DNA of 64,000 bases, taken from positions 51,050-115,049 of the forward strand of contig JALUUL010000054.1 of NCBI GenBank assembly GCA_027021385.1, written 5' to 3'. Position numbers and translations under genes: made by a program. Shown here piece by piece: positions 8,201-58,528 of the stretch; positions within the stretch are counted from its first letter, which is position 1; every line of letters starts with the position of its first letter. This DNA comes from Planctomycetota bacterium (GTDB lineage Bacteria; Planctomycetota; UBA1135; GCA-002748355). The notes beneath the pieces were generated by a model. It was given only the letters and a program-made list of their open reading frames with translations. It was not told where the DNA came from and did no database searches.

Positions 8201-8421
8201 CGATGCTCATGGAGCGCAGCCTCCAGGCCAAGTTCCTGATCCCGATGGCCGTCTCCCTCGGCTTCGGCATCATTTTCGCAACCGTTATCACCCTGGTCTT
8301 CGTCCCCTGCTTCTACCTGGTCATCGAGGACGTCCTCGGCATCTTCCGCTCAGAAGCGGGTCCCCCGGCGGATCCCGAAGGCGGGGTCCCCCGCGATCCA
8401 TTCAGGCTCTTTCCTCTGTAG
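5230..8421 (+). CDS. RND inner-membrane efflux pump (AcrB/AcrD/AcrF family)
   Basis: GTG at 5230 in the frame of ORF 4474..8421. VKGLISWFAENTVAANLLMVMILAGG...VSVPYPGATPSEIEE and 12-TM RND architecture with two large periplasmic loops. The upstream 252 codons of the ORF are Arg/Pro-rich shadow sequence. Confidence 0.9.
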   Translation: MKGLISWFAENTVAANLLMVMILAGGFFAMTSLRQEVVPEVETNKVVVSVPYPGATPSEIEEAICVKIEEQVQGLEGVKRITSSSKENLGTVTIEALNGTDMTRLLSDVKSRVDAIDTFPKDAEEPVVKEVELVLEVMSLALTGPTGERDLVRLGERLRDEISNLPGITRVELVGKRPWEISIEVSEEALRKHGLTFEAVANAVRRASLDLPGGTIHAKAGEILVRSLGQGYSGADFEALPLLTLADGSRLLLGEVAKVVDSFAEVDNEVFFDGSKALLIKVFRVGDQSALAIAETTKEWMESAAERLPEGVRLSVWHDDARLLAGRLGLLLRNGRNGFLLVFLCLALFLRLRLAFWVSFGIPLSFLGAVWLMPGLDVTVNMISLFGFIVVLGIIVDDAIVVGENIFTHLQKGVPIREAVKKGAIQVAVPVVFAVLTTIAAFSPMLGLPGTMGQFARNIPLVVVACLVFSLIESLLVLPAHLRHLRQEHEPKGIAKIWYGFQGIFTRGLETFIERVYQPSLHWALEWRYLTLSIGLATVLFFVGLVAAGWLKFNFFPKIDSDNVSVALTMPMGTPKRRTESVIRGIEDKVEILKKEFPGAVKHVLSAIGDQPYLRRQMRITGGDADEYSSSPQIGEVTLELTPSEERSVSSSVLASRWRELVGEIPEAVAVSFNSNMMNSGADLNIQLSAPDFETLRNGAEILKRRLGDYPGVFNLADSFRVGKQEIRVRIRPEAETLGLRQTDLARQLRQAIYGEEAQRVQRGRDDVKVMVRYTTEERQSLSLLDEMRIRTRNGDEVPLSVVAEIETSRELAEIQRSDRQRSVQITAEVDDRIANSNEILADVKAKVLPGLTGNFPGMTWSFEGQQREQRDFVEGMKKQAMLALVLIYILLAIPFRSYVQPMIIMSVIPFGLVGAILGHLLLGFDLTMMSLIGIIALAGVVVNDSLVIVDFVNRARRGGTPLVEAVEQSGASRFRPILLTSLTTFAGLLPMLMERSLQAKFLIPMAVSLGFGIIFATVITLVFVPCFYLVIEDVLGIFRSEAGPPADPEGGVPRDPFRLFPL

Positions 8422-10890: not shown

Positions 10891-13800
10891 GGGAACCTCC
10901 TCGAGATCTTCCCCCCGCGGACGCGGCCGACCCCGCCTCGGATCTCGAGACTGCCGACGTTGACCTCGAGTCCCGGTTCGTTCTCCCAGCGGAGATCCTC
11001 TCCGGCCCAGAACTCGACGCCGCCCGACCTCCCGCCGTGGAGCAGGAGCCATCCCGTCGGCGGTTCGAACTCGATCTCTTCGGCGAAGGCCCCGAGCCCG
11101 TCCCCCCGGGCCTCGACCCCCCCGCCGGCCAGGAGCTTTCGCAGCTCCAACGGGACATCCCAGGCCGAGGGCGCCCGCATCCCTTCCGCCGGCCCGAGGA
11201 GCAGAACGAGGCTCCCCCCGCCGCGGATCTCGAAATCGGCGTCCGGGTCCGAGATCTCGCGGGCGAGGAAGGGACCCGGGACCTCGAGGCGCCCCGAGGC
11301 GATCCTCGACGGCTCTCCCGAGATCTCGAGGCGAAGCCGGACCGTTCCCCTCGGATCGATGCGCAGCTTCCGGCCCCCGCCCCCTTCCAAGAACAGCACC
11401 GGTCTCTTCGACGGGCCTCCGAGCAGGAGGGCGTCCCTGCCCCGGTCCCGGACCAGGAGACGCGCACCCCGCATGCTCAGGACCCCCGTCTCGGCCATCG
11501 CGATCCTCCCCCGGATCACCCTGCCATCCTCGCCAGAAAGCCGGAGAAACGAACCGTCGCTCCAGAGGTCCAGCCGGTCTCCGTGGAAGGACTGGAGAGT
11601 CGCCCCTCCCCGACTCCGGAACTGCAGCGCGACCCCCTTCCTCGCCCGAATCAGGCGTTCCCCGACGATCCTCTTACGGACCCCAGCCGGGAGGGGTCTC
11701 CAGATCCGCGCCAGCATTCCCTCGACCGCCGGGGGAGCGATCCAGGGAAGGACCTCGAGTTCGGCGCATTCGAGGGTCGCCTCCGAGTCTCCGCCGGGCC
11801 AGAAGCCCTCGGCGACGACCCGCCCCTCCGCCCGCAGCCAGGCCTCGACCCCACGGCCCACGACCCCCTCCCGCCCCTCGAAGAGGAACCGCGCCGCACG
11901 GACCCGCGCCTCCCCCCCATCCTTCGAGGGACGGCGTAACACGACGACCGCGGGGACGGACAGGCCCTCTAGGATCCAGGGGCCGTCCCCCGTCCTCGAC
12001 AGCAGCCTCCCCCGCGCCTCGAGACCCCGCTCCGGAACGACGAATCGGAGAGGGCGGCCTCGGAGTTCGAGCCGCAGGCGGTCCTTCGACTCGACGAGGA
12101 CTCCATCTCGGATCCCCTCGACGCTCGTCCGACCCCGTCGGGTCGGCATCGACCAGCGCATTCCGTTTCCCGAACGGGCGTGGAGGGAAAGCCTCGAACC
12201 GGGAGCCGGACCGCCGCCTCGATGCGCCCGCCTGCCGTGCATCAGGATGCGCCCCCGGCCGGAGAGGACCCCCTCTTCGAACCGGATGCGGATCGGACCC
12301 TCGCGGTCCCAGGGTCCGAGGCTTCCGAAGACGGCCTTCGACCCCGGAGGTTCCAGGAAGGCGAATCCCTCCTTTCCGTCGAGACGGTAGGCGGGACGTC
12401 CCGGTTCGCGGTTCGCCTCGACCTCCACCCGACCGCTCGTGAATCCGAACACGGGCTCGAGCCCCTCGAGGCCCTCGACCAGGGACAGGATGACCGCGCT
12501 TTCGCTCCTGAAGTCGGGAATCGCCCCTCCCGCCGCCTGGAACTTCGCCCCCGGCCCGATCGTCAGGATCTCCCCCCCTCCGAACGGGAAGAAGAAGCGG
12601 CGGAAGACCTCCGTCGTGAGGCTTTTCGGGAAGCCGAACAGTTCCGGAAGGCGCGCGGATTCCCGATCCCAATCGACGAAAGCGGCCCCGACGAGCCGGC
12701 CGAGAGCCTCCCCGCCAGCCCCCTCGAGATCGAGGATCGGATCCCCCTCCGCGCGGAGGCGTGAAGGTTTTCCGTCTGAACCGATCGCGACCGCCAGCCG
12801 CCGGGCGCGGAGCGATTGCCCCCCGAACCGCAAACGCATCGGAGAGACCTCGCCGCCCTCCACGAGGAGATCGGTCAGAGCGTGGGGAACGAAGTAGGCC
12901 CCCCGGTCGACCCCCGGCAGACGCCCACGCCGGATCCTCGCCTCGAGCGAGCGGCCGAGGACGTCGAGCGGTTTCGCGCCGAGCCGGAGATCCCGAAGGA
13001 AGCGCCGGGCGCGGAATTCGATTCCGCCCTCGAGCCGCAGGCGCCACTCGTCCACGTCGATCCTGCGGAAGACGAGGGGTCCCCCTCCCCGGAGTTCGAA
13101 GCCCGACCCGAGGTCCCCGGACATCTCGTCCTTCCGATCCCTGAGAACGACATCGGACTCGATCCGGATCCAGGAATTCCCGCCCTCGCCCCCCGACGCC
13201 CCGAGGGAATGCAGGTCCGCGCTCAAGCCCTTACCGTCGAGGAACAAGGGACCATCCTCGAACTTAGCCTCCATGCGGACCGGCTGCGAGGAATCCGGGG
13301 TATGCACCTCGAAACGCTCCTCGCCCGCGTTGACGAGCAGGCGGGAGACGTGGAGACGGATCGGAGGAGTCGCGCCTCCCCTCCCGCCGGAATCCTTTGC
13401 CCGGACGAGGAGCACGACATCCCCGAGATCCATTTCATGGGAACGGTCGAGGGAGCGGTTCCCCGCCTCGTCGATCGCCATCCGCAGATTCGCTCGGGAG
13501 GCCCGGAGTTCGAAACGCAACTTCTCCCGCTCGGTCCCTCGCCCGTGGAACTCCGCGTACAACCCGTCGAGGTCATAGGTCCCGTCTTCCCTCGGCCTCG
13601 AATCCTCCCAGGAAAGGAAATAGAGCCGGCGCCGTTTTCGGGCCTCCCGGTCCTCGACGAAGACCTCGAGATCCCCCTTCCCCCGGCCGCGGACCCCGAC
13701 GGCTCCTCCGAGCCCCGGCCCCGTCTCTTCCCGCTTCCCGGTCTTGACCTTCACCTCCCCGGGACCTTCCGGGATCTCGACCCGTGCACGTCCCTCCCTT

Positions 13801-13898
13801 CCCCCGAACTGGAAGGCCTCCTCCCCGGAAACGATGAAGACCAGCAGGAGGACCCCTCCTCCGAAGAGGAGGAGAAAATGGAGGAGACGACGGATCAC
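10887..13898 (-). CDS. 1003 aa protein with a single N-terminal TM anchor, sitting in the lptC/lptA position. Candidate periplasm-spanning lipid-bridge protein; function not established.
   Basis: GTG start overlaps the kdsC stop (GTGA), and the stop overlaps the lptD start. N-terminus MIRRLLHFLLLFGGGVLLLVFIV is a TM helix. The remainder is beta-strand-like with recurring xLRLEhxG / hRhxADxh motifs. Competing frames are Pro/Arg/Ser shadow ORFs. Confidence 0.6.
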   Translation of the reverse strand: MIRRLLHFLLLFGGGVLLLVFIVSGEEAFQFGGREGRARVEIPEGPGEVKVKTGKREETGPGLGGAVGVRGRGKGDLEVFVEDREARKRRRLYFLSWEDSRPREDGTYDLDGLYAEFHGRGTEREKLRFELRASRANLRMAIDEAGNRSLDRSHEMDLGDVVLLVRAKDSGGRGGATPPIRLHVSRLLVNAGEERFEVHTPDSSQPVRMEAKFEDGPLFLDGKGLSADLHSLGASGGEGGNSWIRIESDVVLRDRKDEMSGDLGSGFELRGGGPLVFRRIDVDEWRLRLEGGIEFRARRFLRDLRLGAKPLDVLGRSLEARIRRGRLPGVDRGAYFVPHALTDLLVEGGEVSPMRLRFGGQSLRARRLAVAIGSDGKPSRLRAEGDPILDLEGAGGEALGRLVGAAFVDWDRESARLPELFGFPKSLTTEVFRRFFFPFGGGEILTIGPGAKFQAAGGAIPDFRSESAVILSLVEGLEGLEPVFGFTSGRVEVEANREPGRPAYRLDGKEGFAFLEPPGSKAVFGSLGPWDREGPIRIRFEEGVLSGRGRILMHGRRAHRGGGPAPGSRLSLHARSGNGMRWSMPTRRGRTSVEGIRDGVLVESKDRLRLELRGRPLRFVVPERGLEARGRLLSRTGDGPWILEGLSVPAVVVLRRPSKDGGEARVRAARFLFEGREGVVGRGVEAWLRAEGRVVAEGFWPGGDSEATLECAELEVLPWIAPPAVEGMLARIWRPLPAGVRKRIVGERLIRARKGVALQFRSRGGATLQSFHGDRLDLWSDGSFLRLSGEDGRVIRGRIAMAETGVLSMRGARLLVRDRGRDALLLGGPSKRPVLFLEGGGGRKLRIDPRGTVRLRLEISGEPSRIASGRLEVPGPFLAREISDPDADFEIRGGGSLVLLLGPAEGMRAPSAWDVPLELRKLLAGGGVEARGDGLGAFAEEIEFEPPTGWLLLHGGRSGGVEFWAGEDLRWENEPGLEVNVGSLEIRGGVGRVRGGKISRRFP

Positions 13899-14485
13899 GA
13901 TCCCTCTCCCGGCCCTCCCGGGCGCCCGCAGGCATCGACGACGGAACCGTAGAGCCCCTTCGCCCGGAGGAGGAGTTCGACGACCTCCCGGACCGCCCCT
14001 CCTCCGGCGGGAGCACGGGTCACGTAGAGGGCGGCTTCCCGGACCTCGGGACGGGCTTGCGGAACCGAAATCGGGGCCCCGACGCGCCTGAGAACCGGAA
14101 GATCGAGCAGATCGTCGCCGACGTAGCAGACCTCGGTCTCGTCGAGTCCGAGGGACTGGAGGATCTCGTCGAGCCGGGCGCTCTTGTCCCGGACTCCGAG
14201 GTGCAGTTCCCGGATCCCGAGTTCCGCGGCGCGGGCTCTCACCGCCGTCGAATCCCGGCCCGAGAGCAAGCCCGTCGCGAACCCCGAACGGCGCCAGTGC
14301 GCGAGACCGCTTCCATCATGCACGTGGAAGACCTTGGACTCCCTCCCCTCCCCATCGAAGAACAACCTCCCGTCGGTCAGGACTCCATCGACGTCGAGGA
14401 GGAGGAGAACAACCTTCGCAAGGACCGCGGCCGCGCCCTCGGGAACCTCTACGGGCTCCGGTATGAACTGGAATCCCTCCCTCAC
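13895..14485 (-). CDS. kdsC: KDO 8-phosphate phosphatase (HAD family)
   Basis: LLLLDVDGVLTDGRLFF...HVHDGSGL...GLLSGRDS...CYVGDDLLDLPVL match the KdsC HAD motifs. Located directly downstream of kdsD. Confidence 0.9.
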   Translation of the reverse strand: MREGFQFIPEPVEVPEGAAAVLAKVVLLLLDVDGVLTDGRLFFDGEGRESKVFHVHDGSGLAHWRRSGFATGLLSGRDSTAVRARAAELGIRELHLGVRDKSARLDEILQSLGLDETEVCYVGDDLLDLPVLRRVGAPISVPQARPEVREAALYVTRAPAGGGAVREVVELLLRAKGLYGSVVDACGRPGGPGEGS

Positions 14486-32615: not shown

Positions 32616-32690
32616 CCTCCGCTTCCCGCCGCCCCCCCGGAACGATCGGCCCTCTCGCGTCAGGAAAACGTAAAAAAGAAACGATATTCG

Positions 32691-32730
32691 CCTCTCAGGG
32701 CAGGGGGGGATTGATCCTCCCCCTGAGAGG
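32691..32730 (+). terminator. Long hairpin between the lipoprotein gene and the M64 peptidase gene
   Basis: CCTCTCAGGG...(G-rich / C-rich inner stem)...CCCTGAGAGG, followed by T-rich ...TTCTCATTTCTTTT. Confidence 0.45.
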
Positions 32731-32793
32731 GCCATAGGCTCGGCAGTTCTCATTTCTTTTCCGATCCCCTTATCCTCCCGTCCGGAGGTCCGT

Positions 32794-35082
32794 ATGGACC
32801 GATTCATCCTCTTCCTCGGCGCCGCTCTGCTCTCCTCCTCCCTCCCCTCCCAGATCCACCCCGAAGGTTCCCTGCTTCTACAGATCGAGGGACGTCCCGG
32901 AGCCGTCCGGCTCGTTCATGCGTGGAGAAAGGCCCGGGCCTTCCCGGTTCCCCGCAAGCCCCGGGCGGGAGGGCGCATCCTCGTTCTGGACGCGAGGGGA
33001 AAACTCCTCGAGGAACGTCCTCTCGACCTCGACCCCTTCGATTTCGATGCAACAGGCGGCTCCGCCCACGTCGTCCTGGGAGACACCCTTCGCTCGAGGG
33101 AGATCGGTCTCTTGATCAAGATCGGGGATTTCGGCCGGGCGATGGACCGCGTCGAGATCCGCGGTCCGGGAAAAGGCGGCGAACGCGTCCTCGGCCGCAT
33201 CTCCCGGGGTGAGATCCTGAAGGTCCTCCAAGGGACCGCGGGGCCCGCCCTCGCCCCCATCGTCAAGACGCAGATGAAGAACGGTCCGGTAGGCAACCGT
33301 TACGACATCGTCATCCTCGGCGACGGATACCGGGCGAGCGAGGAGGCCCGTTTCTATCTCGACGTCAAGAACTGGATGGCCGACCTCTTCGGCAGAGAAC
33401 CCTTCAAGACTTACAAGAGTTTCTTCAACGTCCACACGGTCTTCCGCGCCTCGGCCCAGTCCGGAGCGGATCACCCCGACCGCAAACCCCCGATCTACAA
33501 GAACACCGCCTACGACGCGAGTTACAACACCGGCGGAACCCCCCGCTGCCTCTACATCAAGAACGGGACCCTCGCCCGCGCCGACGCGGCTCTGGCGCCC
33601 GATGTCGAAGGGAGAATCGTCGTCTTCGTCAACGACTCCCGCTACGGGGGATGCGCGGGCACCTTTGCCGTCTCCTACAACGGAAGTTCCAGCCGGCTCG
33701 TGCAGAGTCACGAGTTCGGCCATTCCTTCGGCGGGCTGGCCGACGAGTATAGCTACGGCCGGCCCGGAACCTACCGCGGACCCGAGCCCCGCCAGCCGAA
33801 TCTCACGAAGGACTCGACAGGGAAGACCAAATGGCCTCTTTGGATCGGGACGAACGGCATCGGGGCCTACCAGGGAGCCGGGTATTACCGCTACGGGCTC
33901 TACCGCCCGAAGCTCAACTGCCTGATGCGCGCCCTCTCGGCCCCTCTGTGCGAAATCTGCGTCGAGGAATGCTCGAAGAGGAACTACGCGAAAGTGAATC
34001 CGATCGAGAATCCGATCCCCTCCTCCTCCTCGCTCAAGATCTACAAACCCAGAACGAAGGTTTTCACTTTCACGAACCTGACACCCGGAGGGGGGACGAT
34101 CACTTGGCTGCTGGACGGGAAGCCCGTCCAGCAGGGGGGCACGACGTACACGCTCCTCTCCTCGGGCCTGACGGCCGGGAACCACAGCCTCAAGGTCGAG
34201 GTGAAGGACAAGACGGCCTTCGTCCGCAAGGATCCCACGAAGACCCTCGTCCACTCCCGCACCTGGTCGCTCTCGGTCGTCGACCGGAGCAAGTTCCCCG
34301 ACCTCGTGGTCTCCTCGATCACCGCCCCGACGAGCGCGCCGGCGGGGAGCACGATCAAGATCGTCACGGTCCTCTCGAACTCCGGCGGCGGTTCCTCGGG
34401 CCCCTTCCGGAGCGAACTCTTCCTCTCGAAGGACGCCCTGATCGGAACGCAGGACATCTACTTGGGGGCATCGACCGTCACCGGCCTCGCCCTCAACGGG
34501 ACCACGACCATCACCAGGAACGTTGCGATCCCCCTCTTCGCCCTCCCGGGAACCTGGACCCTCGGAGCCTGGGTCGATCGGGCGAACATCGTCGAGGAAC
34601 GGAACGAGACGAACAACAAGAGAACGGTCTCGTTGAATCTCGGGGCGTACACGGGTTGCCCGGCCAGTCCCGAGTTCCACATGCCCCTCGCCTATCCGAC
34701 GAATTCCTACAAGATCTCGATCATCTCAGGTGGCACCGCCCGGCTCGACCTGACCGCCCCCTGTCGCAAGGGCGACTACTACCTCCTTCTCTGGTCGGGC
34801 AAGGGAACGAGCCCGGGGGTCCGCCTTCCCGGAAACCACCTCCTTCCGCTCAACTGGGATCCGGTCCTGACGCCCTTCGGGCTCGCGACCCTGAACCTCT
34901 ACCCCTTCCGGGGGACCTTCGGGAAGATCGGGACCTCCGGACAGGGGCGGGCCGATCTCTTCATCCCCCCGGTCAAGATCTTCACCCCTTTGTCCACGCA
35001 TTTTGCGGCAATCTTCTTCGACCCGGCCTTCCGCAAGGTCACCGGAACCTCGACGGCGGCGGCCCTCGGCCTCCCCTGGTGA
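32794..35082 (+). CDS. Secreted M64-family (IgA-peptidase-like) zinc metallopeptidase with CARDB-like and C-terminal beta domains
   Basis: Signal peptide MDRFILFLGAALLSSSLPSQ. YDIVILGDGY, VVFVNDSRYGGCAG and HEFGHSFGGLADEY are M64 motifs. PDLVVSSITAP...NETNNK is CARDB-like. Confidence 0.85.
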   Translation: MDRFILFLGAALLSSSLPSQIHPEGSLLLQIEGRPGAVRLVHAWRKARAFPVPRKPRAGGRILVLDARGKLLEERPLDLDPFDFDATGGSAHVVLGDTLRSREIGLLIKIGDFGRAMDRVEIRGPGKGGERVLGRISRGEILKVLQGTAGPALAPIVKTQMKNGPVGNRYDIVILGDGYRASEEARFYLDVKNWMADLFGREPFKTYKSFFNVHTVFRASAQSGADHPDRKPPIYKNTAYDASYNTGGTPRCLYIKNGTLARADAALAPDVEGRIVVFVNDSRYGGCAGTFAVSYNGSSSRLVQSHEFGHSFGGLADEYSYGRPGTYRGPEPRQPNLTKDSTGKTKWPLWIGTNGIGAYQGAGYYRYGLYRPKLNCLMRALSAPLCEICVEECSKRNYAKVNPIENPIPSSSSLKIYKPRTKVFTFTNLTPGGGTITWLLDGKPVQQGGTTYTLLSSGLTAGNHSLKVEVKDKTAFVRKDPTKTLVHSRTWSLSVVDRSKFPDLVVSSITAPTSAPAGSTIKIVTVLSNSGGGSSGPFRSELFLSKDALIGTQDIYLGASTVTGLALNGTTTITRNVAIPLFALPGTWTLGAWVDRANIVEERNETNNKRTVSLNLGAYTGCPASPEFHMPLAYPTNSYKISIISGGTARLDLTAPCRKGDYYLLLWSGKGTSPGVRLPGNHLLPLNWDPVLTPFGLATLNLYPFRGTFGKIGTSGQGRADLFIPPVKIFTPLSTHFAAIFFDPAFRKVTGTSTAAALGLPW

Positions 35083-36385: not shown

Positions 36386-37180
36386 TCAGACGGGACTCGC
36401 CCGGCGGGAGAACCTCCGGGTGAGACGCCTGAGACGCATGCCGGTGAAGCGATGGATCACCTCTAGCATGCGCAGGGCCGTGTCGGGGTGGGTCCTCTTC
36501 AGGAAGGCGAGCCCGTCACGCGACAGGGCGATCAGGCAGGTATCCTCGAGAGCCGCAATGTCGAGATCGTGAGGCAGCCCGATCAGGGCGGATACTTCGC
36601 CGAAGACCTGTCCCGCGCACGCGACCTCGACGGATTCGCCCCCTCCTTCTCGACCTCCTCCGGTCAGCTTGACAACCCCCGAGTGCACGATGAACAGGCT
36701 GCGGGCCTCGTCTCCCTGCCTCGCGAGAACTTCCCCGGCCTCGAGGCTGATCCGATGACAGACGCCGGCCAGGGCCAGGAGATCGAACTCCGTCATGCTT
36801 CGAAAGGCGGGGAAATCCCGCATCCTTTCGACGAGTTGCATCGTCAGGTCCATGACGAGTCGTCGCAACTGGCGCTGTCGGACAGCCGAAACCCTGGGGA
36901 AGGAAACCGCAATCTGGAACCTGGGTTCTTCGTAGAAATCCTCGGAAGGCACGACGCGGCTGATCGAAGCGCTGAGTTCCAGCTCGGGAGCCCCTTCCTC
37001 GATTCGAAACTGCAGAGTCAGTGGATCCCCTAGGAACAGGGCGCGGGGACTCGTGAACAACATCCCGCCCGCGGAGAGATTGCGGATCACGCAGCCGGGA
37101 ACGAGGGTCCCGTCCTGCTGCCGGACCTTCACGGGCCTCGAGACGGCGACCCTTTGATCCTTCCTTGTCTTCGAAGTCAT
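36386..37180 (-). CDS. PilZ domain fused to a cyclic-nucleotide-binding (cNMP/CAP-effector) domain
   Basis: PilZ motifs RKDQRVAVSR (RxxxR) and IRNLSAGGM (D/NxSxxG). The C-terminal half (LARQGDEARSLFIVHSGVVKL...AGQVFGEVSAL) fits a cNMP-binding beta-barrel. Confidence 0.8.
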   Translation of the reverse strand: MTSKTRKDQRVAVSRPVKVRQQDGTLVPGCVIRNLSAGGMLFTSPRALFLGDPLTLQFRIEEGAPELELSASISRVVPSEDFYEEPRFQIAVSFPRVSAVRQRQLRRLVMDLTMQLVERMRDFPAFRSMTEFDLLALAGVCHRISLEAGEVLARQGDEARSLFIVHSGVVKLTGGGREGGGESVEVACAGQVFGEVSALIGLPHDLDIAALEDTCLIALSRDGLAFLKRTHPDTALRMLEVIHRFTGMRLRRLTRRFSRRASPV

Positions 37181-50520: not shown

Positions 50521-52281
50521 ATGCGGCGACTCTCCTTCCCCATTTCGGGCCTCCTCCTGGCGGCCTGCGCCGGAACCCCCGCGGGGGAGAAGGCCTCCGA
50601 ACCCCAGGGTCCCCCCCTTCCCGAGGTCGAGGTCCGTGCCCGGCTCGAGAAAGGCCGCACGATCGGGCTGCGCTTCGACCTCCCGGGGGTTCCGTCGAGG
50701 CGGCTCCGCGCCCTCGAGGCCTGGGTCGGGGAGGCCCTCGAACAAAGTCCGTACTTCGATTTCGACCTGCGCGGGGAGCACGGGACCACCCTCGTCCTAC
50801 GCGGCGAACTGCCCTCCCTCGGCAGGACCGAGGGAAGCCTGACGACCGGTCTCGTCCGCGAGGGGGCGCCTCCCCTCCCGCTGCGGGGAGTGCGCTTCGC
50901 GGGAGACGACCTGTGCCTCGCCCTCGACCGCCTCTGTCTCGAGACCCGGCTGGCGCTCGGCGAACCCCCAGACTCGGTCCGGAAGGAACGACGTTCCTGC
51001 GCCGTCCTCGTCAGCGAGGACGAACGAGTCGCCGAGGCGATCGGACAGGCCTGGACCCTGATCGGCCGGCGCAGGCTCGCTCTCGCCTCGGCCCGGCTCC
51101 AGGACGCCCTAAGGCGCGACCCGACCTGCGCCCTGGCTCTCTCGATGGCCGCGGGACTCCGGATGGATCTCGGGCTTCCGAAGAAAGCCCTCGAGCTCGT
51201 ACTCCGGCTCCGGGAGTGCGAGGGCCGCGCCTCTCCGCGCGCCCTCCACCGCGCGGGCCGGATCTGGCTGATGGCGGGCCGCAACTACGAGGGGCTCCTC
51301 GAACTGGCCGAGAACGACGCGCGGGACCGCCCCTTCGATCCGCAGATCCGCTTCACCGCTCTCCTCGGGCTCTCGATGCTCGGCCGCTACGAGGAGGCCC
51401 TCCCCGGCCTTCGCGCCCTCGTCCGGAGACTTCCCGACTCCCCCGGGGTCCTCTTCTGCCTGGGGCACGCCTTCCTGGCCCTCGGACGTCTCGACGAGGC
51501 CGAGAAGCTCCTCCCCGCGATCCGTCTCCATGTTCCTCCTGCCAGCACCGCCCGCTTCGAGATCTGGCTCCGCTTCGCCCAGGGACGACACGAACTCGTC
51601 GAGAAGAAGCTCTCCGAGCTCGTTTCGAACCTCGGTCGCGGTTCCCCCCGCGCCCTTCTCCAGACCCTCTCGATGCAGGCCTCCCACGCCCTTTTGAGGC
51701 GCCGGGACGACGAGGCTTCCCGCATCCTCTTCCGGATCCTCGAATCCTTCCGGGCTCGACCCTCCCTTCTGCTCGAGGAGCACCGACTCCTTCTCGACAC
51801 CGTCTGGACCCTCGTCCGGCTCGGGAAAGCGGAACCCGCGTCCGAGATCCTGCGGCAGGTTTCTCCGCCGCGATCCGCCAAGGCCGCGGAGAGGGGTCCT
51901 TCCTTCGTCGCCTACGCGCTGTGTCGTCTCGCCCTAGGGCGCGACGTCCCCGCCCGCGCGATCGAGGAACTCGATTCGATGGGCCTCTCGACCTGGAAGG
52001 CCCGCCTCCAGGCGGCCGATCGGATGCGGCGCGGACAACCCCGCCTCGCGCTGACCGCCCTGCGCGCGGCCGAGGCCCGGAGCGAGGACCCGGCCCTCGT
52101 CTGGGAGATGGTCGAGGCCTGGAGGGCCCAGGGCCGTCTCGACGCCGCCCTCCCCGTCCTCCGCGACCTCGTCCGCGCCCTCGCCCGCCCTCGGATGGAT
52201 CTCCCCCATCGCCATCCCCTCGCCTCCCCCGCCCTCGCCTTCATGTATCGGGAAGCCCTTCTCGCCCTTTCCCCACGCTGA
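50521..52281 (+). CDS. TPR-like repeat lipoprotein
   Basis: The ATG at 50521 gives MRRLSFPISGLLLAACAG (lipobox LLAAC). The C-terminal two thirds consist of helical pairs with TPR-like A/L/R periodicity. Confidence 0.6.
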   Translation: MRRLSFPISGLLLAACAGTPAGEKASEPQGPPLPEVEVRARLEKGRTIGLRFDLPGVPSRRLRALEAWVGEALEQSPYFDFDLRGEHGTTLVLRGELPSLGRTEGSLTTGLVREGAPPLPLRGVRFAGDDLCLALDRLCLETRLALGEPPDSVRKERRSCAVLVSEDERVAEAIGQAWTLIGRRRLALASARLQDALRRDPTCALALSMAAGLRMDLGLPKKALELVLRLRECEGRASPRALHRAGRIWLMAGRNYEGLLELAENDARDRPFDPQIRFTALLGLSMLGRYEEALPGLRALVRRLPDSPGVLFCLGHAFLALGRLDEAEKLLPAIRLHVPPASTARFEIWLRFAQGRHELVEKKLSELVSNLGRGSPRALLQTLSMQASHALLRRRDDEASRILFRILESFRARPSLLLEEHRLLLDTVWTLVRLGKAEPASEILRQVSPPRSAKAAERGPSFVAYALCRLALGRDVPARAIEELDSMGLSTWKARLQAADRMRRGQPRLALTALRAAEARSEDPALVWEMVEAWRAQGRLDAALPVLRDLVRALARPRMDLPHRHPLASPALAFMYREALLALSPR

Positions 52282-52380: not shown

Positions 52381-53328
52381 TCAAAAGGCCTGAAGAAGGT
52401 GAAGGCCGTTGTAGAGGGCGTGGAAGATCATGCCGGGAATCAGGCTCTTCGACCTGAAGCGGAGGTGGCCGAGGTAGAAACCGATGAGGAGGATGACCGG
52501 AAGGACCGGGGTGAGGCCGTGCGCGACCATGAAGGCGACCGCGGTGATCCAGATCCCGTGCGACCTTCCGTACAGGGCCGCGATCCTCCCGAGGAGGAGA
52601 CCGCGGAAGGCGATTTCCTCGAAGAAGGCGGGAAAGGCCGCGAAGGAAAGGTAGGCGAGCCAAGGCCCGATCCTCCTCGAGGTCTCGAGAATGGGCTCTT
52701 TCAGTCGCAGGTCTTCGTCGAGGAAGCCGACCAGGCCCTGGATCAGGACGGCGAGACCCAGGGCGATCAGAGTCGCGACGGCAACCTCCGAGACGAATCC
52801 CCATCGGAAGCGGCGCAGGGGAGCGAAGCTGTATTCGGGCCGCCGGAGGCACGCGAGGAAGACGAGGATCCCGATCAGGGGTTGCCCCAGGAAGGTCGCC
52901 AGGTATTCCCTTCCCGGAGGAAGAAGACGATAGAGAAGGAACGGGACCAGGAAGAAGGGCCCGAGAACGAAGGTCAGGTCGAGGATGACCTCACGCAACC
53001 ATTTCCTCCGATCGTCCTCCCGGGCGTCCTCGAGGGCCCCTTCCTCGAGAGCCGCGTCCAAGCGGATCGAGGTTCCATCGATCGGGATCTCGCCCGGACC
53101 CGGGCGGGAGATCGGAGCGGACAGGGGGCCCGAAGACGGGAGTCGAGGGACCCCGATCCAGGTTCCGCAAACGCAACGAAGCTTCGCGCCCGCCAGTTCC
53201 GCGAGGACGCGCCACCGGACCTCGCAGGAAGGGCATCGGAGATCCAGGCCGTCCCCGGCCTCGACCCGCACTCCGGGAGGCCAGAAGCGGACCTCATCCT
53301 CGGGAACGGGGAGTCCGGGACCCTCCAC
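52381..53328 (-). CDS. CPBP-family (CAAX/Abi) intramembrane glutamic protease with an N-terminal zinc-ribbon-like domain
   Basis: GTG start. CPSCEVRW...CVCGTW is a 4-Cys ribbon. CPBP motifs are FFEEIAFRGLLLG, FMVAHG and FHALYNG. Confidence 0.8.
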   Translation of the reverse strand: MEGPGLPVPEDEVRFWPPGVRVEAGDGLDLRCPSCEVRWRVLAELAGAKLRCVCGTWIGVPRLPSSGPLSAPISRPGPGEIPIDGTSIRLDAALEEGALEDAREDDRRKWLREVILDLTFVLGPFFLVPFLLYRLLPPGREYLATFLGQPLIGILVFLACLRRPEYSFAPLRRFRWGFVSEVAVATLIALGLAVLIQGLVGFLDEDLRLKEPILETSRRIGPWLAYLSFAAFPAFFEEIAFRGLLLGRIAALYGRSHGIWITAVAFMVAHGLTPVLPVILLIGFYLGHLRFRSKSLIPGMIFHALYNGLHLLQAF

Positions 53329-53331
53329 CGA

Positions 53332-54273
53332 CTACTCTCCCTTCCTTCGGGGCTCCCGAGCCAGGAGACGGAAGCGCACGGCCCCGATCCTCGGATGCAT
53401 CAGGGCCCTGAAGGCCTCCCGCGACTCCCAGGGAGGAGTGCAGAAGATCCGCCGGGTCTCCAGGGCTTTCCCGCGTTCGTCCTCGAGGACGAGCCAGAAG
53501 CGCCCCTCGCTCACGAGCTTCCGGTAGGCCCTCTTCCGCTCGGGATCGGAGACTCCGGTCAAGTACTCGTCGAAGCCCTTTTCGCTCGCCCCGAAACCCT
53601 TCTTCCATTCCCCGATGAACTCGTTCCTCGAACCCGCCCTCTCGACCGTGATCTCCAGGTCTCCCGCGAAGGGTCCCGCGTCGAGTTCCAGGTCCCCGGG
53701 TCCGGTCCCGAAGAGGGTCTCGAAATAGCCCCTCTTCCACGCGAGACCGACCGAGGCCGCGACGATGAGAAAGGCGATGCTCCCGGCCCGGAGAACCTGC
53801 CGGCGGTTCCAGGAGGGGAGTCTCCGCCGCTCCGGATCCCGGGCGAGGTCCCCGGCGTCCACCGGACGCCGCCTCCGGATCACGTGGACCGTCCCTCGGT
53901 CCGGCACGTAGAGGAACTCGTCGGTCTCGCTTTCGCCGACCATCGTGCAGCGCAGGGTCGATTCGAACCCCGCCGCCGAGCCCCGGGATTCGGGAAGCCT
54001 CGCGAGGATGCGCCTGAGGAGCTCGATCCTTTCCGGCTTGCAGACCCTGGGTTTCAGGATCCGATCGTCGGCCAGAAAGGTGAATCGATTCCCCTCGTAG
54101 CTGAGGAGGAAATCCCCGAGTCCGAGGTGCCGGATCTCGGCCGACAGGATCTCGAGGTCCAGCGGGTCCTCCCCGACGATTCCGCGGAACACGCCGTCGA
54201 ACCACCCGTACCTCCAATCGGGATCCCGAAGCTCTTCGAGAGCCGGTTTCTCACGATCGAGATCCGGAGCCAT
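53332..54273 (-). CDS. 313 aa hypothetical bitopic membrane protein
   Basis: A central TM segment AGSIAFLIVAASVGLAW sits between two ~130-160 aa soluble domains. 3 nt gap to the CPBP gene. Confidence 0.6.
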   Translation of the reverse strand: MAPDLDREKPALEELRDPDWRYGWFDGVFRGIVGEDPLDLEILSAEIRHLGLGDFLLSYEGNRFTFLADDRILKPRVCKPERIELLRRILARLPESRGSAAGFESTLRCTMVGESETDEFLYVPDRGTVHVIRRRRPVDAGDLARDPERRRLPSWNRRQVLRAGSIAFLIVAASVGLAWKRGYFETLFGTGPGDLELDAGPFAGDLEITVERAGSRNEFIGEWKKGFGASEKGFDEYLTGVSDPERKRAYRKLVSEGRFWLVLEDERGKALETRRIFCTPPWESREAFRALMHPRIGAVRFRLLAREPRRKGE

Positions 54274-54282
54274 CGGCGCTCC

Positions 54283-54864
54283 TCAGCTCGAGGCCGCTTC
54301 CCCGAGGAGTCCATGAACCTCGGAGGCCCGCGTCCACTCCTCGAAGGCCGGACACCAGACGAGGGTTTCCGTCGAGATCTCCCCGCGCCTCGATGCTTCT
54401 AAGATCGCCTTCCAACGCATCGGTCCGACGCGCTCTTCCCCCTTCGCATAGAACCAGCCCTCTTCGGGAAGACCCTTCGGAACCCGGGAGGGAAGGAGCG
54501 GGGGAGGGAGAGAGCTTTCAGGAAGGCTTCCTCCCCCCACGGCCGCGATCGGCTTCGTATCCAGGCCGAGAGACTGGTCATGCACGTCGAGACGCTTCTC
54601 GACATGGGAGAAACGCTGATCGGCGCTCATGCGGTCGCTCTTGACGATCTCACGGAGCCTCCGGTTCTCCCGCACGATCCTCTGGAGCCTGCGTTGCTCC
54701 TGCTTCAGATCGGGAAGGACGAAGAGGAGCAGGAGCCCGAAAATGGTGAAGAGGCAACCGATGAAAAACCAGGCGACGAAGCTGCGTCCCCGCTGATTCG
54801 CGAGCGCCGCGCAACCGAGGCCGAAGGCGCCGTAGATAAAAAGGACGATCCAGTTGTCTATCAT
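54283..54864 (-). CDS. Membrane protein with a C-terminal GYF_2 (DUF4339-like) domain
   Basis: Start MIDNW at 54864. Two TM helices and a coiled-coil QEQRRLQRIVRENRRLREIV. GYF-like WFYAKGEERVGPMRWKAILEASRRGEISTETLVWCPAFEEW. Confidence 0.7.
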   Translation of the reverse strand: MIDNWIVLFIYGAFGLGCAALANQRGRSFVAWFFIGCLFTIFGLLLLFVLPDLKQEQRRLQRIVRENRRLREIVKSDRMSADQRFSHVEKRLDVHDQSLGLDTKPIAAVGGGSLPESSLPPPLLPSRVPKGLPEEGWFYAKGEERVGPMRWKAILEASRRGEISTETLVWCPAFEEWTRASEVHGLLGEAASS

Positions 54865-54953
54865 CGGGGACCTCGGGCATTGGGTTCGGTTCGAGACCGG
54901 AGATCGAGGAGAGCCGATTCGATCTTCGTCGGAGCCATCGAGTCTTGATCCGT

Positions 54954-55820
54954 TCAAGCGAAGAGGACGAGCCTGAGGTCGGCGACCTCCCGAAAGCCCG
55001 CAGCCTCGTAGGCCCGCAGGGCGCGCTCGTTGTCCCGGCCCACGTGGAGACCGACTCGGGGATGGGTTTCGAGGCATTCCGCCGCGGCGGAAGCTACGAG
55101 CCTCCGGGCGAATCCCCGCCCTCTGGACTCGGGTCGAGTATACACCCCTTCGATCAGCGCGCCGTGGGGCCCCCGCTGCCCGATCTCCAATTTGGCGACC
55201 GGAACCCCCGAGACCTCGGCGAGGCGGGTCCGTCCCTCGAGCATCCGGCGCTCGATCTGGGCGCAAAGGCCCCGACGATCGACCCTTCCGGGGTCGATGC
55301 CGAGATCCTCTGCGTTGAGGCGCAGGTTCGCCTCGACCAGCCAGGCGAGGTCGTCCGGCTGGGCCGGGCGGATCGGGAGGGTCTCCCCGAGAGGATCCCC
55401 CCTCGAGACGGCCAGGAAGGGTTGGGAACGCAGAAGACGGACCGGCAGCTCGGCCTGGAGCCTCAGGAGGAGGATGGTCATGGACTCGGGGGGGCCCAGG
55501 CCGATGCGCGGGCTCTCCCGCTCGGCGAGGATCTCCGGGGCGAAGGCCGAGGCCGCGGAGGGGTACCCGGGCCCCAGGACGAAGAGGCGCTTGCTGCCGA
55601 GGAAACAGAGCCCCTCGAGCCCCCCTTCCCCGTAGGCGGCGAGGAAACGGCCCTCGGAAACCGGCTCCCGTCGATGCGGAAGCCGGGAGAAGGACGGCCG
55701 CTCCCCCTCGAGGGCGGCTTCGAGGAGGTTCGCGAGGAAGAGGTGGGATGGGTCCCGGATCGCATCCCAGGACAGGACGGCGGGAATGTCCGAGGGTTCG
55801 AGTCGCCGGACCACCGTCAT
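54954..55820 (-). CDS. GNAT-family N-acetyltransferase with an N-terminal accessory domain
   Basis: The start MTVVRRLEP overlaps the methyltransferase stop (ATGA). The C-terminal acetyl-CoA motif is RPESRGRGFARRLVAS...NERALRAYEAAGF. Confidence 0.78.
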   Translation of the reverse strand: MTVVRRLEPSDIPAVLSWDAIRDPSHLFLANLLEAALEGERPSFSRLPHRREPVSEGRFLAAYGEGGLEGLCFLGSKRLFVLGPGYPSAASAFAPEILAERESPRIGLGPPESMTILLLRLQAELPVRLLRSQPFLAVSRGDPLGETLPIRPAQPDDLAWLVEANLRLNAEDLGIDPGRVDRRGLCAQIERRMLEGRTRLAEVSGVPVAKLEIGQRGPHGALIEGVYTRPESRGRGFARRLVASAAAECLETHPRVGLHVGRDNERALRAYEAAGFREVADLRLVLFA

Positions 55821-57049
55821 CCCCACGGCCTCCCTTCCCGGGAGCCGAGACCGCCCGGCTTCCGAAGCAGGACGAGCCTGTTCGTGTTCGTCCCCTTCCG
55901 GTTGTTCTCGACGCCCCAGCAGTTCGAGGTCTTCGTGAACTCCTGGAGGTTGACGAGCACGCTGACCGGTTCGAGACCCGCGGCCGCGGCGGCGGGAAGG
56001 ATGGATTCCTCGAGTCTGATCTTGCCCCCCCTCACTTCTCCGACCTCGAAGACGACCCAGCCTCCGGGAAGGAGGACGCGGACAAGGGCGCGGAAGACCT
56101 CCATCATCTTCCCGATCCATTCTCCGAGACGGGACGGGGTCGAAAGCCGCCGGCCGATCGCCTCGGCGTCGAAGCCGTTGAACCAGCAACGCAGCCAGTT
56201 GTCCTTCGCGTAGTCGACGACGTCGAGGAAAGGGGGAGAAGTCACGACGAGCCGGACGGAGGCGTCCGGCAGGCTCTCGAGGGCCGCCGCGTCCTCGGTC
56301 AGGAACCGGGCCCGCGCGGCGACGCGGCGCAGGCCTTCGAGGACCTCGGCGTCCAGGCCGCGGCGGAGGGAGCGGCTCTTTCTGGCCATGAGATCGAGAA
56401 CGTCCTTAGGCTCGGGCCTCAGTCCCCGGCGTTCGTTCAACTTCCGCTGGGTCTCGATCGAGACCGCCTGGTTCGGAGGCATCGTGCGCACCGAGAAGAA
56501 ACCCGGCGAATGCCCGCTCAGCCTGTTCGTCGCGATCATCCGGAGCCAGCGGTCCGTCCGGTCGAGGCTCCCGCTCTTCTCCCCTTCGAGGAAACGCGAC
56601 CGCAGCGCGCGAAGGAGGCCCAGGGTCACCGGGTGATAGAAGACCTCGAGGTCGGGCTCGTCCGCATCGGGTCCGGGATCGACGAGATCCCGCCGGTAGA
56701 GGGAGAGCCTCTCCTCGACCTCGGACTCTTCCGGGGGATCGAGCCGTGGCTCGCAGAGGATGCGGGCCAGCGGATTGAGGTCGTTGCCGCAGGGGACACG
56801 TCCGAGCAGCGCGGCCTCGATCAGGGTCGTCCCCCGTCCCATGAACGGATCCAGCACGAGATCGCCGGGTCTCGACATCCTCCGGAGGAAGAAGCGGGGG
56901 AGTTCGGCCTTGAAGCAGGCACGGTAGCTGATCTCGTGCAGGGAATGCCCCCCGCGTTGCCGGGCCGGCCAGAGTTCCCGCCAGACCCTGGGAATGCGCC
57001 TCCCCGCGACCTCGAGCCAGTCGACCTTCGTCTCGGCCCTCGTCTTCAC
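55817..57049 (-). CDS. N4/N6 DNA methyltransferase-like protein (N6_N4_Mtase motifs in permuted order); no nuclease partner seen
   Basis: The GTG start overlaps the pyrK-like stop (GTGA). The SAM-binding motif PGDLVLDPFMGRGTT lies near the N-terminus. The catalytic motif VVTSPPFLDVVDY lies ~225 aa downstream, followed by RVLLPGGWVVFEVG. Confidence 0.8.
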   Translation of the reverse strand: MKTRAETKVDWLEVAGRRIPRVWRELWPARQRGGHSLHEISYRACFKAELPRFFLRRMSRPGDLVLDPFMGRGTTLIEAALLGRVPCGNDLNPLARILCEPRLDPPEESEVEERLSLYRRDLVDPGPDADEPDLEVFYHPVTLGLLRALRSRFLEGEKSGSLDRTDRWLRMIATNRLSGHSPGFFSVRTMPPNQAVSIETQRKLNERRGLRPEPKDVLDLMARKSRSLRRGLDAEVLEGLRRVAARARFLTEDAAALESLPDASVRLVVTSPPFLDVVDYAKDNWLRCWFNGFDAEAIGRRLSTPSRLGEWIGKMMEVFRALVRVLLPGGWVVFEVGEVRGGKIRLEESILPAAAAAGLEPVSVLVNLQEFTKTSNCWGVENNRKGTNTNRLVLLRKPGGLGSREGRPWG

Positions 57050-57873
57050 CAGCGAAGCTCTCGGGCGTCGAAGACCGGACCGTCCACGCAGGCCTTGGCG
57101 TAACGAGCCCCCTCGAAACGGTCCCGCCCCCGAACCTCGACGCTGCAACCGTTGCACACCCCGTATCCGCAGGCCATGACGGTCTCGAGACTGACCATGC
57201 ACGGGAGGTCCCGGTTCCGGCATTCGGCGGCGACCGCGGCCATCATCGGCTCGGGGCCGCAGCAAAGGACCGGGGCCTCTCCATCGAGCGCATCCTCCCC
57301 GACGAGCCTCCGGTAGAGGTCCAGGACCGTGCCCCGGCTTCCCAGGCTTCCGTCGTCGGTCGCGAGCCTCCAGTCGACGAGGCCTTCCTCGAACTCCTCC
57401 CGGCCGACCAGGGCCCTCGCGTTCCGTCCTCCGTAGAGGAGAGGGATCGGACCCGCCCCGGCGGCGGCCCTCTCCCTCGCCCAGAGGAGGAAGGGGGCGA
57501 GGCCGACTCCGCCGGCCAGGCAGACGGGTTCCTTTCCGCCCATTGGCGCCGGGAAGCCTCTCCCGAGAGGTCCGGTCACCCGGACCCTGGAGCCCGGGGG
57601 GGCGGAGGTCAGAGCCGCCGTGCCGGGGCCGACGACCTTCACGAGGAAGCTCCCCCTGCCGAACACGGGGCCCTCCTCCCGGACCTCCCCGGTCGGTTCC
57701 CGGAGATCGAAATAGGAGAAGGGTCGCGGCAGCAGGCAGGGCCAATCCCGCACGAGGGAGAGCATCGCGAAGGCCCCCGGACGGACCGTCGGGAAGGGAC
57801 CCTCGAGTTCGAGGACGAAGTCCTTCTCCCCGAGGCGGCGGACTTCGCACAGGCGATGGACCCGGACCTCCAT
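57046..57873 (-). CDS. PyrK-like FAD/NAD(P)-binding oxidoreductase with a C-terminal 2Fe-2S cluster (dihydroorotate-dehydrogenase electron-transfer-subunit family)
   Basis: Start MEVRVHRL at 57873. RPFSY flavin motif, AGGVGLAPF, and the cluster motif MACGYGVCNGCSV...CVDGPVF. Confidence 0.8.
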   Translation of the reverse strand: MEVRVHRLCEVRRLGEKDFVLELEGPFPTVRPGAFAMLSLVRDWPCLLPRPFSYFDLREPTGEVREEGPVFGRGSFLVKVVGPGTAALTSAPPGSRVRVTGPLGRGFPAPMGGKEPVCLAGGVGLAPFLLWARERAAAGAGPIPLLYGGRNARALVGREEFEEGLVDWRLATDDGSLGSRGTVLDLYRRLVGEDALDGEAPVLCCGPEPMMAAVAAECRNRDLPCMVSLETVMACGYGVCNGCSVEVRGRDRFEGARYAKACVDGPVFDARELRW

Positions 57874-57922
57874 GCGGGCGAGGATACGCCTTCGCCCCCG
57901 GAGAGACAGCACCGGAGACCGG

Positions 57923-58528
57923 ATGCCCGACATGCTTTCCCCCTTCGTCCTCGGCCCCCTCGCGGGCGCGCTGATCGGATACCTCACGAACACGATCGCG
58001 GTCCTCATGCTGTTCCGGCCGCACGGGAAGAAAGGTCCGTCGGTCCTCGGACTGCAAGGCCTGATCCCGAAGCGCCAGGCCGCCCTCGCGAAGAAGATCG
58101 GAGAGGTCGTCGGAACCCATCTCGTCGAACACGAGGACCTCGCCCGGGCCTTCGCCGGGATCGACCTCGAACCCATGATCCGGGAACTCCTCGACAAGGC
58201 CCTGGGGGAGAAGGTCCGGGAACTGGCGGCCCTGCCGATGATCGGGGCCTTCCTGACCGAGGAGCGGATCGCCGGTATCCGGGACGGGATCGCGGCCGCG
58301 GTCGCGAAGGATCGGGAGACCTTCCTGGAGCACCTGGAGGCAGGCCTCGAAAAGGGCCTCGACGTCCCGCGCATCGTCGAGGCCAAGGTCGCGGCCTTTC
58401 CCGTGGAGAAACTGGAGACCCTCGTCCTGGAGGTCGCCCGCCGGGAGCTGCGGGCGATCGAACTCTGGGGGGCGGTCCTCGGCGCCCTGATCGGGCTCGT
58501 CCAGGCCTTCCTGCTCTCGGGCACATGA
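57923..58528 (+). CDS. DUF445-family membrane-associated protein
   Basis: GALIGYLTNTIAVLMLFRP and the C-terminal ELWGAVLGALIGLVQ. Start could be 57923 or 57932. Confidence 0.7.
   Translation: MPDMLSPFVLGPLAGALIGYLTNTIAVLMLFRPHGKKGPSVLGLQGLIPKRQAALAKKIGEVVGTHLVEHEDLARAFAGIDLEPMIRELLDKALGEKVRELAALPMIGAFLTEERIAGIRDGIAAAVAKDRETFLEHLEAGLEKGLDVPRIVEAKVAAFPVEKLETLVLEVARRELRAIELWGAVLGALIGLVQAFLLSGT

Follow-up and report, generated by a model that had tools for sequence, protein, structure and literature searches.

To our knowledge, a zinc ribbon paired with a GYF domain has so far been studied in one bacterial machine only. The GYF domain of the bacterial protein GltJ binds a proline-rich sequence of AglZ, and the zinc ribbon of GltJ, which binds the linker, works as a switch; an adjacent zinc ribbon is reported for 44% of bacterial GYF proteins (Attia et al. 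2024, PMC11135422). A GYF domain and a putative zinc ribbon are also encoded by a cluster of six minus-strand genes (52381-57873) in a stretch of 64,000 nucleotides (nt) from a Planctomycetota bacterium (contig JALUUL010000054.1), which is referred to here as the window. The six genes encode a PyrK-like flavoprotein, a DNA methyltransferase, a GNAT acetyltransferase, a GYF-domain membrane protein, a protein of 313 amino acids (aa) that is called X, and a protease of the CPBP family, respectively.

An earlier note on this DNA described the cluster as a single operon with the flavour of a self-protection, immunity or envelope-signalling module. Comparison with related loci shows that the six-gene set splits exactly at an 89-nt spacer. 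The favoured explanation, which is held to be very probable, is that the genes are two separately inherited units that are neighbours in this lineage only. The first three genes (module A) are a block inherited vertically in one Planctomycetota clade. The last three (module B) are a genuine conserved, uncharacterised membrane module that occurs Planctomycetota-wide. This explanation is carried by observations on gene order, on the independence and conservation of the modules, and on the retained catalytic and zinc-binding residues.

Gene organization

The window has a composition of 62-72% GC, so that spurious open reading frames (ORFs) are plentiful in every frame. Gene models were set by start-codon inspection and by the gene calls of the source assembly (ENA ERZ27262676 k141_621228, 146 kb). 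The six minus-strand models, which match those calls exactly, and the spacer are as follows.

57873..57046, minus strand: pyrK-like gene, first of module A; 275 aa, PyrK-family flavoprotein, flavin adenine dinucleotide (FAD)/NAD-binding with a C-terminal 2Fe-2S domain
57049..55817, minus strand: methyltransferase gene, second of module A; 410 aa, GTG start overlapping the pyrK stop (GTGA)
55820..54954, minus strand: GNAT gene, third of module A; 288 aa, two-domain acetyltransferase, ATGA overlap with the methyltransferase gene
54865-54953, no strand: spacer of 89 nt, boundary of modules A and B
54864..54283, minus strand: GYF_2 membrane protein gene, first of module B; 193 aa, two transmembrane (TM) segments, coiled-coil linker, C-terminal GYF domain
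54273..53332, minus strand: X gene, second of module B; 313 aa, bitopic, 9-nt gap from the GYF gene
53328..52381, minus strand: CPBP protease gene, third of module B; 315 aa, Rce1-like, N-terminal zinc ribbon, 3-nt gap from X

The co-directional layout, with the overlaps and gaps given in the earlier note, is borne out by start-codon inspection and the source calls. All domains named there were found in Pfam, NCBIfam and PADLOC scans, X again belonging to no family, and a hydropathy scan supports the two TM segments of the GYF protein, the bitopic topology of X and the cytoplasmic four-cysteine ribbon of the CPBP protein. Four-base gene overlaps are widespread in high-GC operons and alone are no evidence of a common function. 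The statement that no restriction endonuclease or pyrD is present nearby agrees with what was found: Pfam scans of selected ORFs across the window gave no DHO_dh (pyrD), NfnB-like or nuclease family, although the absence of a nuclease is not thereby proven, because restriction enzymes are frequently without a Pfam family and nucleases without a model could escape. No Rfam family and no tRNA were found in the region and its surroundings. A protein-cluster look-up of the proteins of the window returned neither names nor taxonomy.

Comparative synteny of the two modules

The earlier claim of one functional operon does not survive comparison across genomes: the six-gene order is kept in 0 of the 28 related loci examined, an outcome that the earlier note itself named as refuting, and each half is conserved alone. 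In the metagenome-assembled genome (MAG) PDSF01, the two halves lie on different contigs, the pyrK-methyltransferase-GNAT trio on contig 46 (L061, PDSF01000046.1) and the GYF-X-CPBP triad on contig 40 (L015, PDSF01000040.1).

The trio has been identified in five other Planctomycetota assemblies (loci L004, L005/L006, L008, L060 and L061). The order in these loci is DUF445 (divergent), pyrK, N6_N4 methyltransferase and GNAT, with 4-base overlaps in most of them. Identity to the proteins of the window is 55-63% for PyrK, 55-64% for the methyltransferase and 40-49% for GNAT. No GYF, X or CPBP genes of module B lie within the 7-10 kb fetched around the trio in these five assemblies. The downstream flank of the trio varies among L004, L005, L060 and L061 while the trio itself stays intact. 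The more distant PyrK loci L007 (51%) and L062 (53%) contain DUF445 and pyrK alone.

The triad is present at 23 other Planctomycetota loci, and no pyrK, methyltransferase or GNAT gene was found within 8-10 kb of it there. Loci with the triad and without the trio are L002 and L009-L029, and also L032 (with a ribbon-less CPBP) and L033 (with a frameshifted CPBP start). The closest full-length relative of the CPBP protease, P0004 (33% identical), is encoded in a Planctomycetota MAG at locus L002. Its gene lies downstream of a GYF_2 gene (36% to the GYF protein of the window) and a 315-aa gene, with overlapping ends, and the 315-aa product is a homologue of X (28%, E 7e-16). The GYF gene of L002 is preceded by a peptidase gene and a NUDIX gene, not by pyrK, methyltransferase or GNAT.

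Two trio loci, L005 and L008, keep the flanks of the window, with NUDIX-DUF445 on one side and the TPR gene, a 327-aa gene, HEAT and gltX on the other. The genes that adjoin the cluster in the window are the following.

57923..58528, plus strand: DUF445 membrane protein gene, divergent from pyrK (source gene call and Pfam)
50521..52281, plus strand: TPR gene, convergent, at the far edge of the module B indel (source gene call)

The convergent TPR orthologue of L005 and L008 (44-45% identity) begins at most about 40 nt from the GNAT stop, and GYF, X and CPBP genes are absent between GNAT and TPR in both loci. The same interval in the window is 2.67 kb long and holds exactly the three membrane genes. 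Since GNAT abuts the TPR gene in L005 and L008, module B fills an indel of about 2.7 kb in the window. No flanking repeats that would mark a mobile element were found around module B, only short imperfect matches.

Genes of module B

The product of the first gene of module B matches Pfam GYF_2 (1e-13, 51.3 bits against a cut-off of 25.8). It also matches the NCBIfam model GltJ over the GYF domain (2e-7), at 30 bits against a cut-off of 450. The sole match of the GYF domain in the PDB is 7z3c (E 3e-4), deposited as Myxococcus 'Adventurous gliding motility protein X', which we take to be the GYF domain of GltJ. The hydropathy scan places TM segments at residues 1-19 and 32-50, and a stretch rich in lysine and arginine (K/R) follows the second.

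No match to X was found in Pfam, NCBIfam or PADLOC. A prior word-indexed homology search returned the query alone. An exhaustive HMMER search yielded a family of 132 representatives at 50% clustering, including the query (131 others), with 82 at E<=1e-10 and nearly all of 280-345 aa. Its conserved motifs are WFDG, GGRFS, ESTLRCT and SRxRP. A broad alignment of 45 X sequences had no conserved stretch, and the pattern [VI]ESTLRCTxV was drawn from members with ESTLRCT. A scan of one genome per GTDB species with this pattern, which misses the FESTLRCT of the window and so possibly close relatives as well, identified 21 X loci; most were labelled Planctomycetota, two 'uncultured bacterium' and one Verrucomicrobia.

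Hydropathy of X shows one TM segment at 160-178, with six K/R before it and two after, so that an N-in orientation is predicted. The check on this protein proposed in the earlier note, an AlphaFold structure, gave a confident AlphaFold2 model from a 118-sequence alignment, with a predicted local distance difference test score (pLDDT) of 92.8. The model consists of a disordered N-terminal tail, an alpha/beta domain (22-137), a TM helix (157-180) and another alpha/beta domain (196-304); the first domain is predicted to be cytoplasmic and the second periplasmic. Foldseek of the model against the PDB gave no fold match below E 0.01, only a weak ferredoxin-like/ACT-like resemblance. The N-terminal tail of the X family contains 19% proline against 4.6% in the remainder, and a PP run occurs in half of the members.

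The product of the third gene is an Rce1-like protein of the CPBP family (PF02517; 8.1e-16, 58.5 bits where the cut-off is 22.4). Among 17 CPBP orthologues, the catalytic motifs (FEEIAFRG, AFMVAHG and HALYN) show conservation of >=80%. The best NCBIfam match is ABC_perm_CPBP (3.5e-22), at 78.9 bits against a cut-off of 435, and the matches to all named subfamilies (ABC_perm_CPBP, MrtS, MrtJ, MrtP and Rv0804) are under their cut-offs, so that the protein is assigned to none of them. No sequence relative was found in the PDB. The zinc ribbon, C-x2-C-x3-W-x-[VI]-H-x4-G-x-RLRC-x-C, is present in 16 of the 17 orthologues. It is predicted to be cytoplasmic because the first TM segment in the hydropathy scan comes after residue 110.

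The gene neighbourhoods of 24 triad loci were compared by tblastn and by clustering of their ORFs. The GYF-TM gene lies directly upstream of X in all 23 loci having upstream DNA. The CPBP gene lies directly downstream of X in 17 loci (16 with the zinc ribbon) and, truncated or frameshifted, in two more. The triad genes overlap or are 3-9 nt apart. Three triad loci carry a tandem duplication of the GYF-TM gene upstream of X (L016 6691-7878; L020 1287-2409; L028 6576-7733). In 12 of the 24 loci (e.g., L010 6932-7441 and L033 6454-6927) the GYF gene is immediately preceded by a gene for a small DUF2752 membrane protein, which is absent from the window, where GNAT has that position. Literature searches gave nothing relevant on GYF with CPBP or, in the library searched, on DUF2752.

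Genes of module A

The PyrK-like protein matches DHODB_Fe-S_bind (PF10418, 2.2e-13) and NAD_binding_1 (PF00175, 2.5e-8) in Pfam. The RPFS flavin motif and C-x4-C-x2-C-x16-C can be read in its sequence, as is characteristic of PyrK. The NCBIfam PyrK equivalog models gave 115 bits against cut-offs of 219-314 bits. Its nearest PDB entries, NfnA (4ylf) and PyrK (1ep1), match equally well (about 1e-19 to 1e-20). A total of 5459 homologues were found, the top ones in Planctomycetota, and most of those named by their source are called 'DHODH electron transfer subunit'. Neither pyrD nor nfnB lies beside pyrK in eight loci, nor did the scanned ORFs of the window include either of them. Most likely the protein still is an NAD(P)H-FAD-2Fe-2S electron carrier, and its partner, probably a class 1B PyrD, would have its gene elsewhere.

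DUF445 is head-to-head with pyrK in 8 of 8 PyrK loci, including two without the methyltransferase and GNAT genes, at a spacing of 14-222 nt. It is thus a steadier companion of this PyrK than any pyrimidine gene. The DUF445 and pyrK starts in the window are 49 nt apart (57874-57922), so close that their promoters must overlap or sit in coding sequence.

The methyltransferase matches N6_N4_Mtase (PF01555; 1.4e-15, 58.3 bits against a cut-off of 26.7) and, over nearly its full length, the PADLOC model PDLC03325 MTase_II (1.7e-146). Motif I (DPFMGRGTT) is N-terminal and motif IV (TSPPF) is C-terminal, the motifs of exocyclic-amine methyltransferases. TSPPF and DPFxGxG are present in 16 of 16 aligned members; the middle region is 30-60% identical, and the protein is conserved over its whole length. 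Matches in the PDB are beta-class and N4-cytosine enzymes and cover the motif I and motif IV regions only. SPPF or SPPY is the usual motif of N4-cytosine enzymes. Since TSPPF resembles it, specificity for N4-cytosine is predicted, with N4-methylcytosine (m4C) as the better guess for the product.

Conservation of the methyltransferase across the trio loci (55-64%) is on a par with that of PyrK. Its gene has the same housekeeping neighbours in six assemblies and is not organised as a Type II restriction-modification system, as no nuclease family was found within 10 kb by PADLOC or Pfam, from which model-less nucleases could escape. About 20 metagenome contigs carry most or all of the gene at 47-58% identity with varied neighbours (radical SAM, RadC), and none of them has pyrK, GNAT or a recognisable nuclease. 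Relatives at 39-41% have been found on plasmids of Acetobacter and Sulfitobacter, again with no annotated nuclease beside them. A phage collection contained no close relative and almost no relatives at all. The enzyme therefore looks like a clade-resident solitary (orphan) methyltransferase, not a mobile restriction-modification gene, and it may have a regulatory (epigenetic) function as an orphan m4C enzyme throughout the clade. The proposal of an orphan enzyme in the earlier note thus stands as far as Pfam and PADLOC detect no nuclease gene beside it; the self-protection flavour suggested for the cluster gains no support.

In four contigs from soil metagenomes, the methyltransferase homologue is directly preceded by a conserved ORF of about 200-300 aa, which has no Pfam match and could encode an unrecognised nuclease or another partner. 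Its positions are as follows.

L037 4338-5264: ORF upstream of the methyltransferase homologue
L038 669-1301: the same
L040 5178-5804: the same
L043 772-1359: the same

The GNAT protein matches Acetyltransf_1 (5.8e-11, 43.1 bits against a cut-off of 20.7), FR47 (2.4e-9) and, weakly at residues 59-159, DUF4081. The acetyl-CoA motif A (RGRGFA) is intact, as in GNAT enzymes, and only generic GNATs were matched in the PDB. The genes of module A are translationally coupled, and no biochemical link is evident among their three products. A different CPBP gene, convergent and fused to or beside genes for ABC2-type permeases and an ABC ATPase, lies a few kb downstream of GNAT in three trio loci (L004 7045-10955, L060 11191-14795 and L061 11455-14813). 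ABC_perm_CPBP, the best NCBIfam match of the CPBP protease of the window, is the family of such fusions. This recurrent proximity has been treated provisionally as a coincidence because the ribbon-CPBP orthologues sit elsewhere.

Proposed function and alternative explanations

Module B is tentatively proposed to be an undescribed signalling/proteolysis complex, in which the ribbon/GYF/proline logic of GltJ would be split over three membrane proteins and would control a CPBP protease. The proposal is possible rather than probable. We infer that a complex forms, that GYF makes contact with proline-rich sequence and that proteolysis is regulated, in the following form. The GYF protein, X and the CPBP protease would form an inner-membrane complex. 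The ribbon, the GYF domain and the tail and N-terminal domain of X are all predicted from sequence to lie on the same, cytoplasmic side of the membrane. The GYF domain would dock a proline-rich segment of the X tail or of the linker between the ribbon and the TM segments of the CPBP protein, and the zinc ribbon would join this cytoplasmic interaction as in Myxococcus GltJ. X has a predicted domain on either side of the membrane; it would pass on a cue, periplasmic or cytoplasmic, and so gate the catalytically intact CPBP protease. X would then be the transmembrane sensor, with a modelled fold that has no match among solved structures.

Little remains of the view that all six genes form one functional operon, a defence or immunity module of DNA modification, acetylation and an Abi-type protease. 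It agrees with the co-directional genes, the 4-base overlaps in the first three and the 3-9 nt gaps in the last three, as well as with a spacer that has no terminator, and CPBP/Abi proteins, like methyltransferases, are known from some immunity systems. The absence of the combination from all 28 related loci and the unlinked halves in PDSF01 decide against it; the view is largely refuted by the synteny data and has become extremely improbable. The scan for defence systems suggested in the earlier note, carried out with PADLOC-DB 2.0, gave no match for five of the six proteins and, for the methyltransferase, generic MTase_II with weak domain-level matches to PglX and mad2. No system-specific component of a known anti-phage system beyond a lone methyltransferase is thus present, the cluster is flanked by ordinary housekeeping genes, and the composition is unremarkable. 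An Abi or bacteriocin-immunity-like role of module B by itself, with the CPBP protein guarding against a membrane-active toxin, is very improbable as well. Many CPBP/Abi proteins are bacteriocin immunity proteins, but the only recurrent neighbour of the triad in the 24 loci is DUF2752, with no toxin, bacteriocin or exporter gene among the recurring ones, and module B has no PADLOC match. The recovery of one locus per assembly in many Planctomycetota resembles a core gene set. The defence flavour perceived in the earlier note is therefore not upheld. An envelope or membrane-signalling role is plausible for module B as a conserved membrane unit.

Myxosortase-type Mrt proteases have been proposed to remove anchor signals from envelope proteins. 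A corresponding sorting or maturation system, in which the CPBP protease would remove a C- or N-terminal anchor signal with GYF and X as accessory proteins, is unlikely. Its conserved catalytic residues, the periplasmic domain of X and weak NCBIfam matches (MrtS 1.3e-8, MrtJ 2.5e-6, Mrt_core and MrtP) point that way, but all Mrt scores are far under the cut-offs, no recurring neighbour gene has a recognisable sorting signal, and the protease is missing from beside GYF and X in four loci. Module A in turn might be a true functional unit, for example with the methylase and GNAT modifying a common non-DNA substrate and the PyrK-like protein as redox partner or sensor. Such a unit would account for a trio that is whole in six assemblies despite a changing downstream flank, for overlapping start and stop codons in most trio loci, for a methyltransferase conserved as strongly as PyrK even in its middle region, and for a methyltransferase family without detectable nucleases across varied contexts. 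No known chemistry joins enzymes of these three types, members of the methyltransferase family are found with neither pyrK nor GNAT on >20 metagenome contigs and on plasmids, PyrK occurs with DUF445 alone in more distant relatives, and the trio genomes are all of a single clade (PyrK 55-63%), so that inheritance alone can suffice. A functional unit is accordingly considered improbable, and two separately inherited units are preferred for the cluster as a whole.

Several points weigh against this explanation and the roles proposed for its two parts. CPBP does not adjoin X in four triad loci, so that the protease is not obligatory. Two loci (L014 8971-9786 and L024 8877-9674) have a gene for a calcineurin-like metallophosphatase (Pfam Metallophos, 1e-11) after X where CPBP would be, and the GYF-X pair can thus team with another downstream gene. 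The tail of X in the window has a modest three prolines in 22 residues, and the likeness of the CPBP ribbon, which has no Pfam match, to that of GltJ is putative. Both the substrate of methylation (DNA or other) and its product (m4C or m6A) are predicted from motifs only. Conservation of the trio could stem from shared ancestry within one clade alone, which could suffice because the upstream synteny is conserved too. All six genes may be co-transcribed in this genome, since the spacer has no terminator: no terminator-like or sigma-70-like site was detected in 54865-54953 by scans that may not suit this phylum. The spacer has no Rfam match either, and its RNA fold is less stable than that of shuffled sequence (z = +1.5). 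If read-through from module A to module B is real, the comparative data show a recent arrangement specific to this lineage.

The mixture of a DNA methylase, an acetyltransferase and an Abi-type protease is thus an accident of gene order and no new defence system, and a false lead has been averted. The methyltransferase, fixed between pyrK and GNAT in one clade, is a candidate orphan enzyme, a unit directly testable by methylome analysis. What is new rests on module B, a variant of the CPBP-protease systems in which the zinc ribbon/GYF pair is split and which includes the unnamed family X. Planctomycetota have unusual envelopes and few characterised membrane systems. Module B joins an intramembrane protease to a zinc ribbon/GYF pair and includes a confidently modelled protein family without named relatives.

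Other genes of the window

A gene at 36386-37180 (minus strand) encodes a protein with PilZ and cyclic-nucleotide-binding domains (Pfam 9.5e-15 and 1e-15, respectively). Two long minus-strand ORFs have no Pfam match: one of 1142 codons at 10887-14315 with gene-like codon-position GC, and one of 900 codons at 8350-11052 that failed the codon-position GC filter. An M64 (IgA-peptidase-like) metallopeptidase with a CARDB domain is encoded at 32674-35082 (plus strand). Further secreted-peptidase genes (S8 and M14) are present, as is typical for Planctomycetota.

Comparison with known systems

The PyrK-like protein shares its domain order, the RPFS motif and the four 2Fe-2S cysteines with PyrK of class 1B dihydroorotate dehydrogenase and with the paralogue NfnA/SudB. 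It differs from them in that no pyrD or nfnB is adjacent in the eight loci, in scores under the equivalog cut-offs, and in the head-to-head DUF445 gene found instead. The methyltransferase resembles the orphan enzymes CcrM and Dam and N4-cytosine enzymes of the M.PvuII type in its PF01555 domain, the lack of an adjacent nuclease, its fixed position in a clade, its strong conservation and the SPPF motif. Its motif order, motif I before motif IV, is permuted and is the reverse of that in the solved beta-class enzymes matched in the PDB.

The CPBP protease has the motifs EExxxR, FxxxH and HxxxN and the multi-TM core in common with other CPBP/Rce1-like proteases (PF02517; Rce1, MroQ, SpdC, Mrt 'myxosortases' and ABC-permease/CPBP fusions). 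Unlike these, it has an N-terminal zinc ribbon within about 110 predicted cytoplasmic residues, and its gene is constantly linked to those for a GYF membrane protein and the X family.

No Glt, Agl or MglA genes were found near module B, and none of its products is a GltJ-type ribbon-GYF protein. Module B and GltJ of the gliding focal-adhesion machinery of Myxococcus xanthus (7z3c) have in common a bacterial-type GYF domain and a four-cysteine zinc ribbon in the same unit. Both domains are predicted to be tethered to the inner membrane and to face the cytoplasm, with a proline-rich segment available as a candidate ligand. The order zinc ribbon-linker-GYF occurs in one polypeptide in GltJ, whereas the ribbon and the GYF domain of the window are on two proteins. 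The GYF domain follows the membrane anchor in the window and precedes it in GltJ, and the ribbon of the window is fused to a protease.

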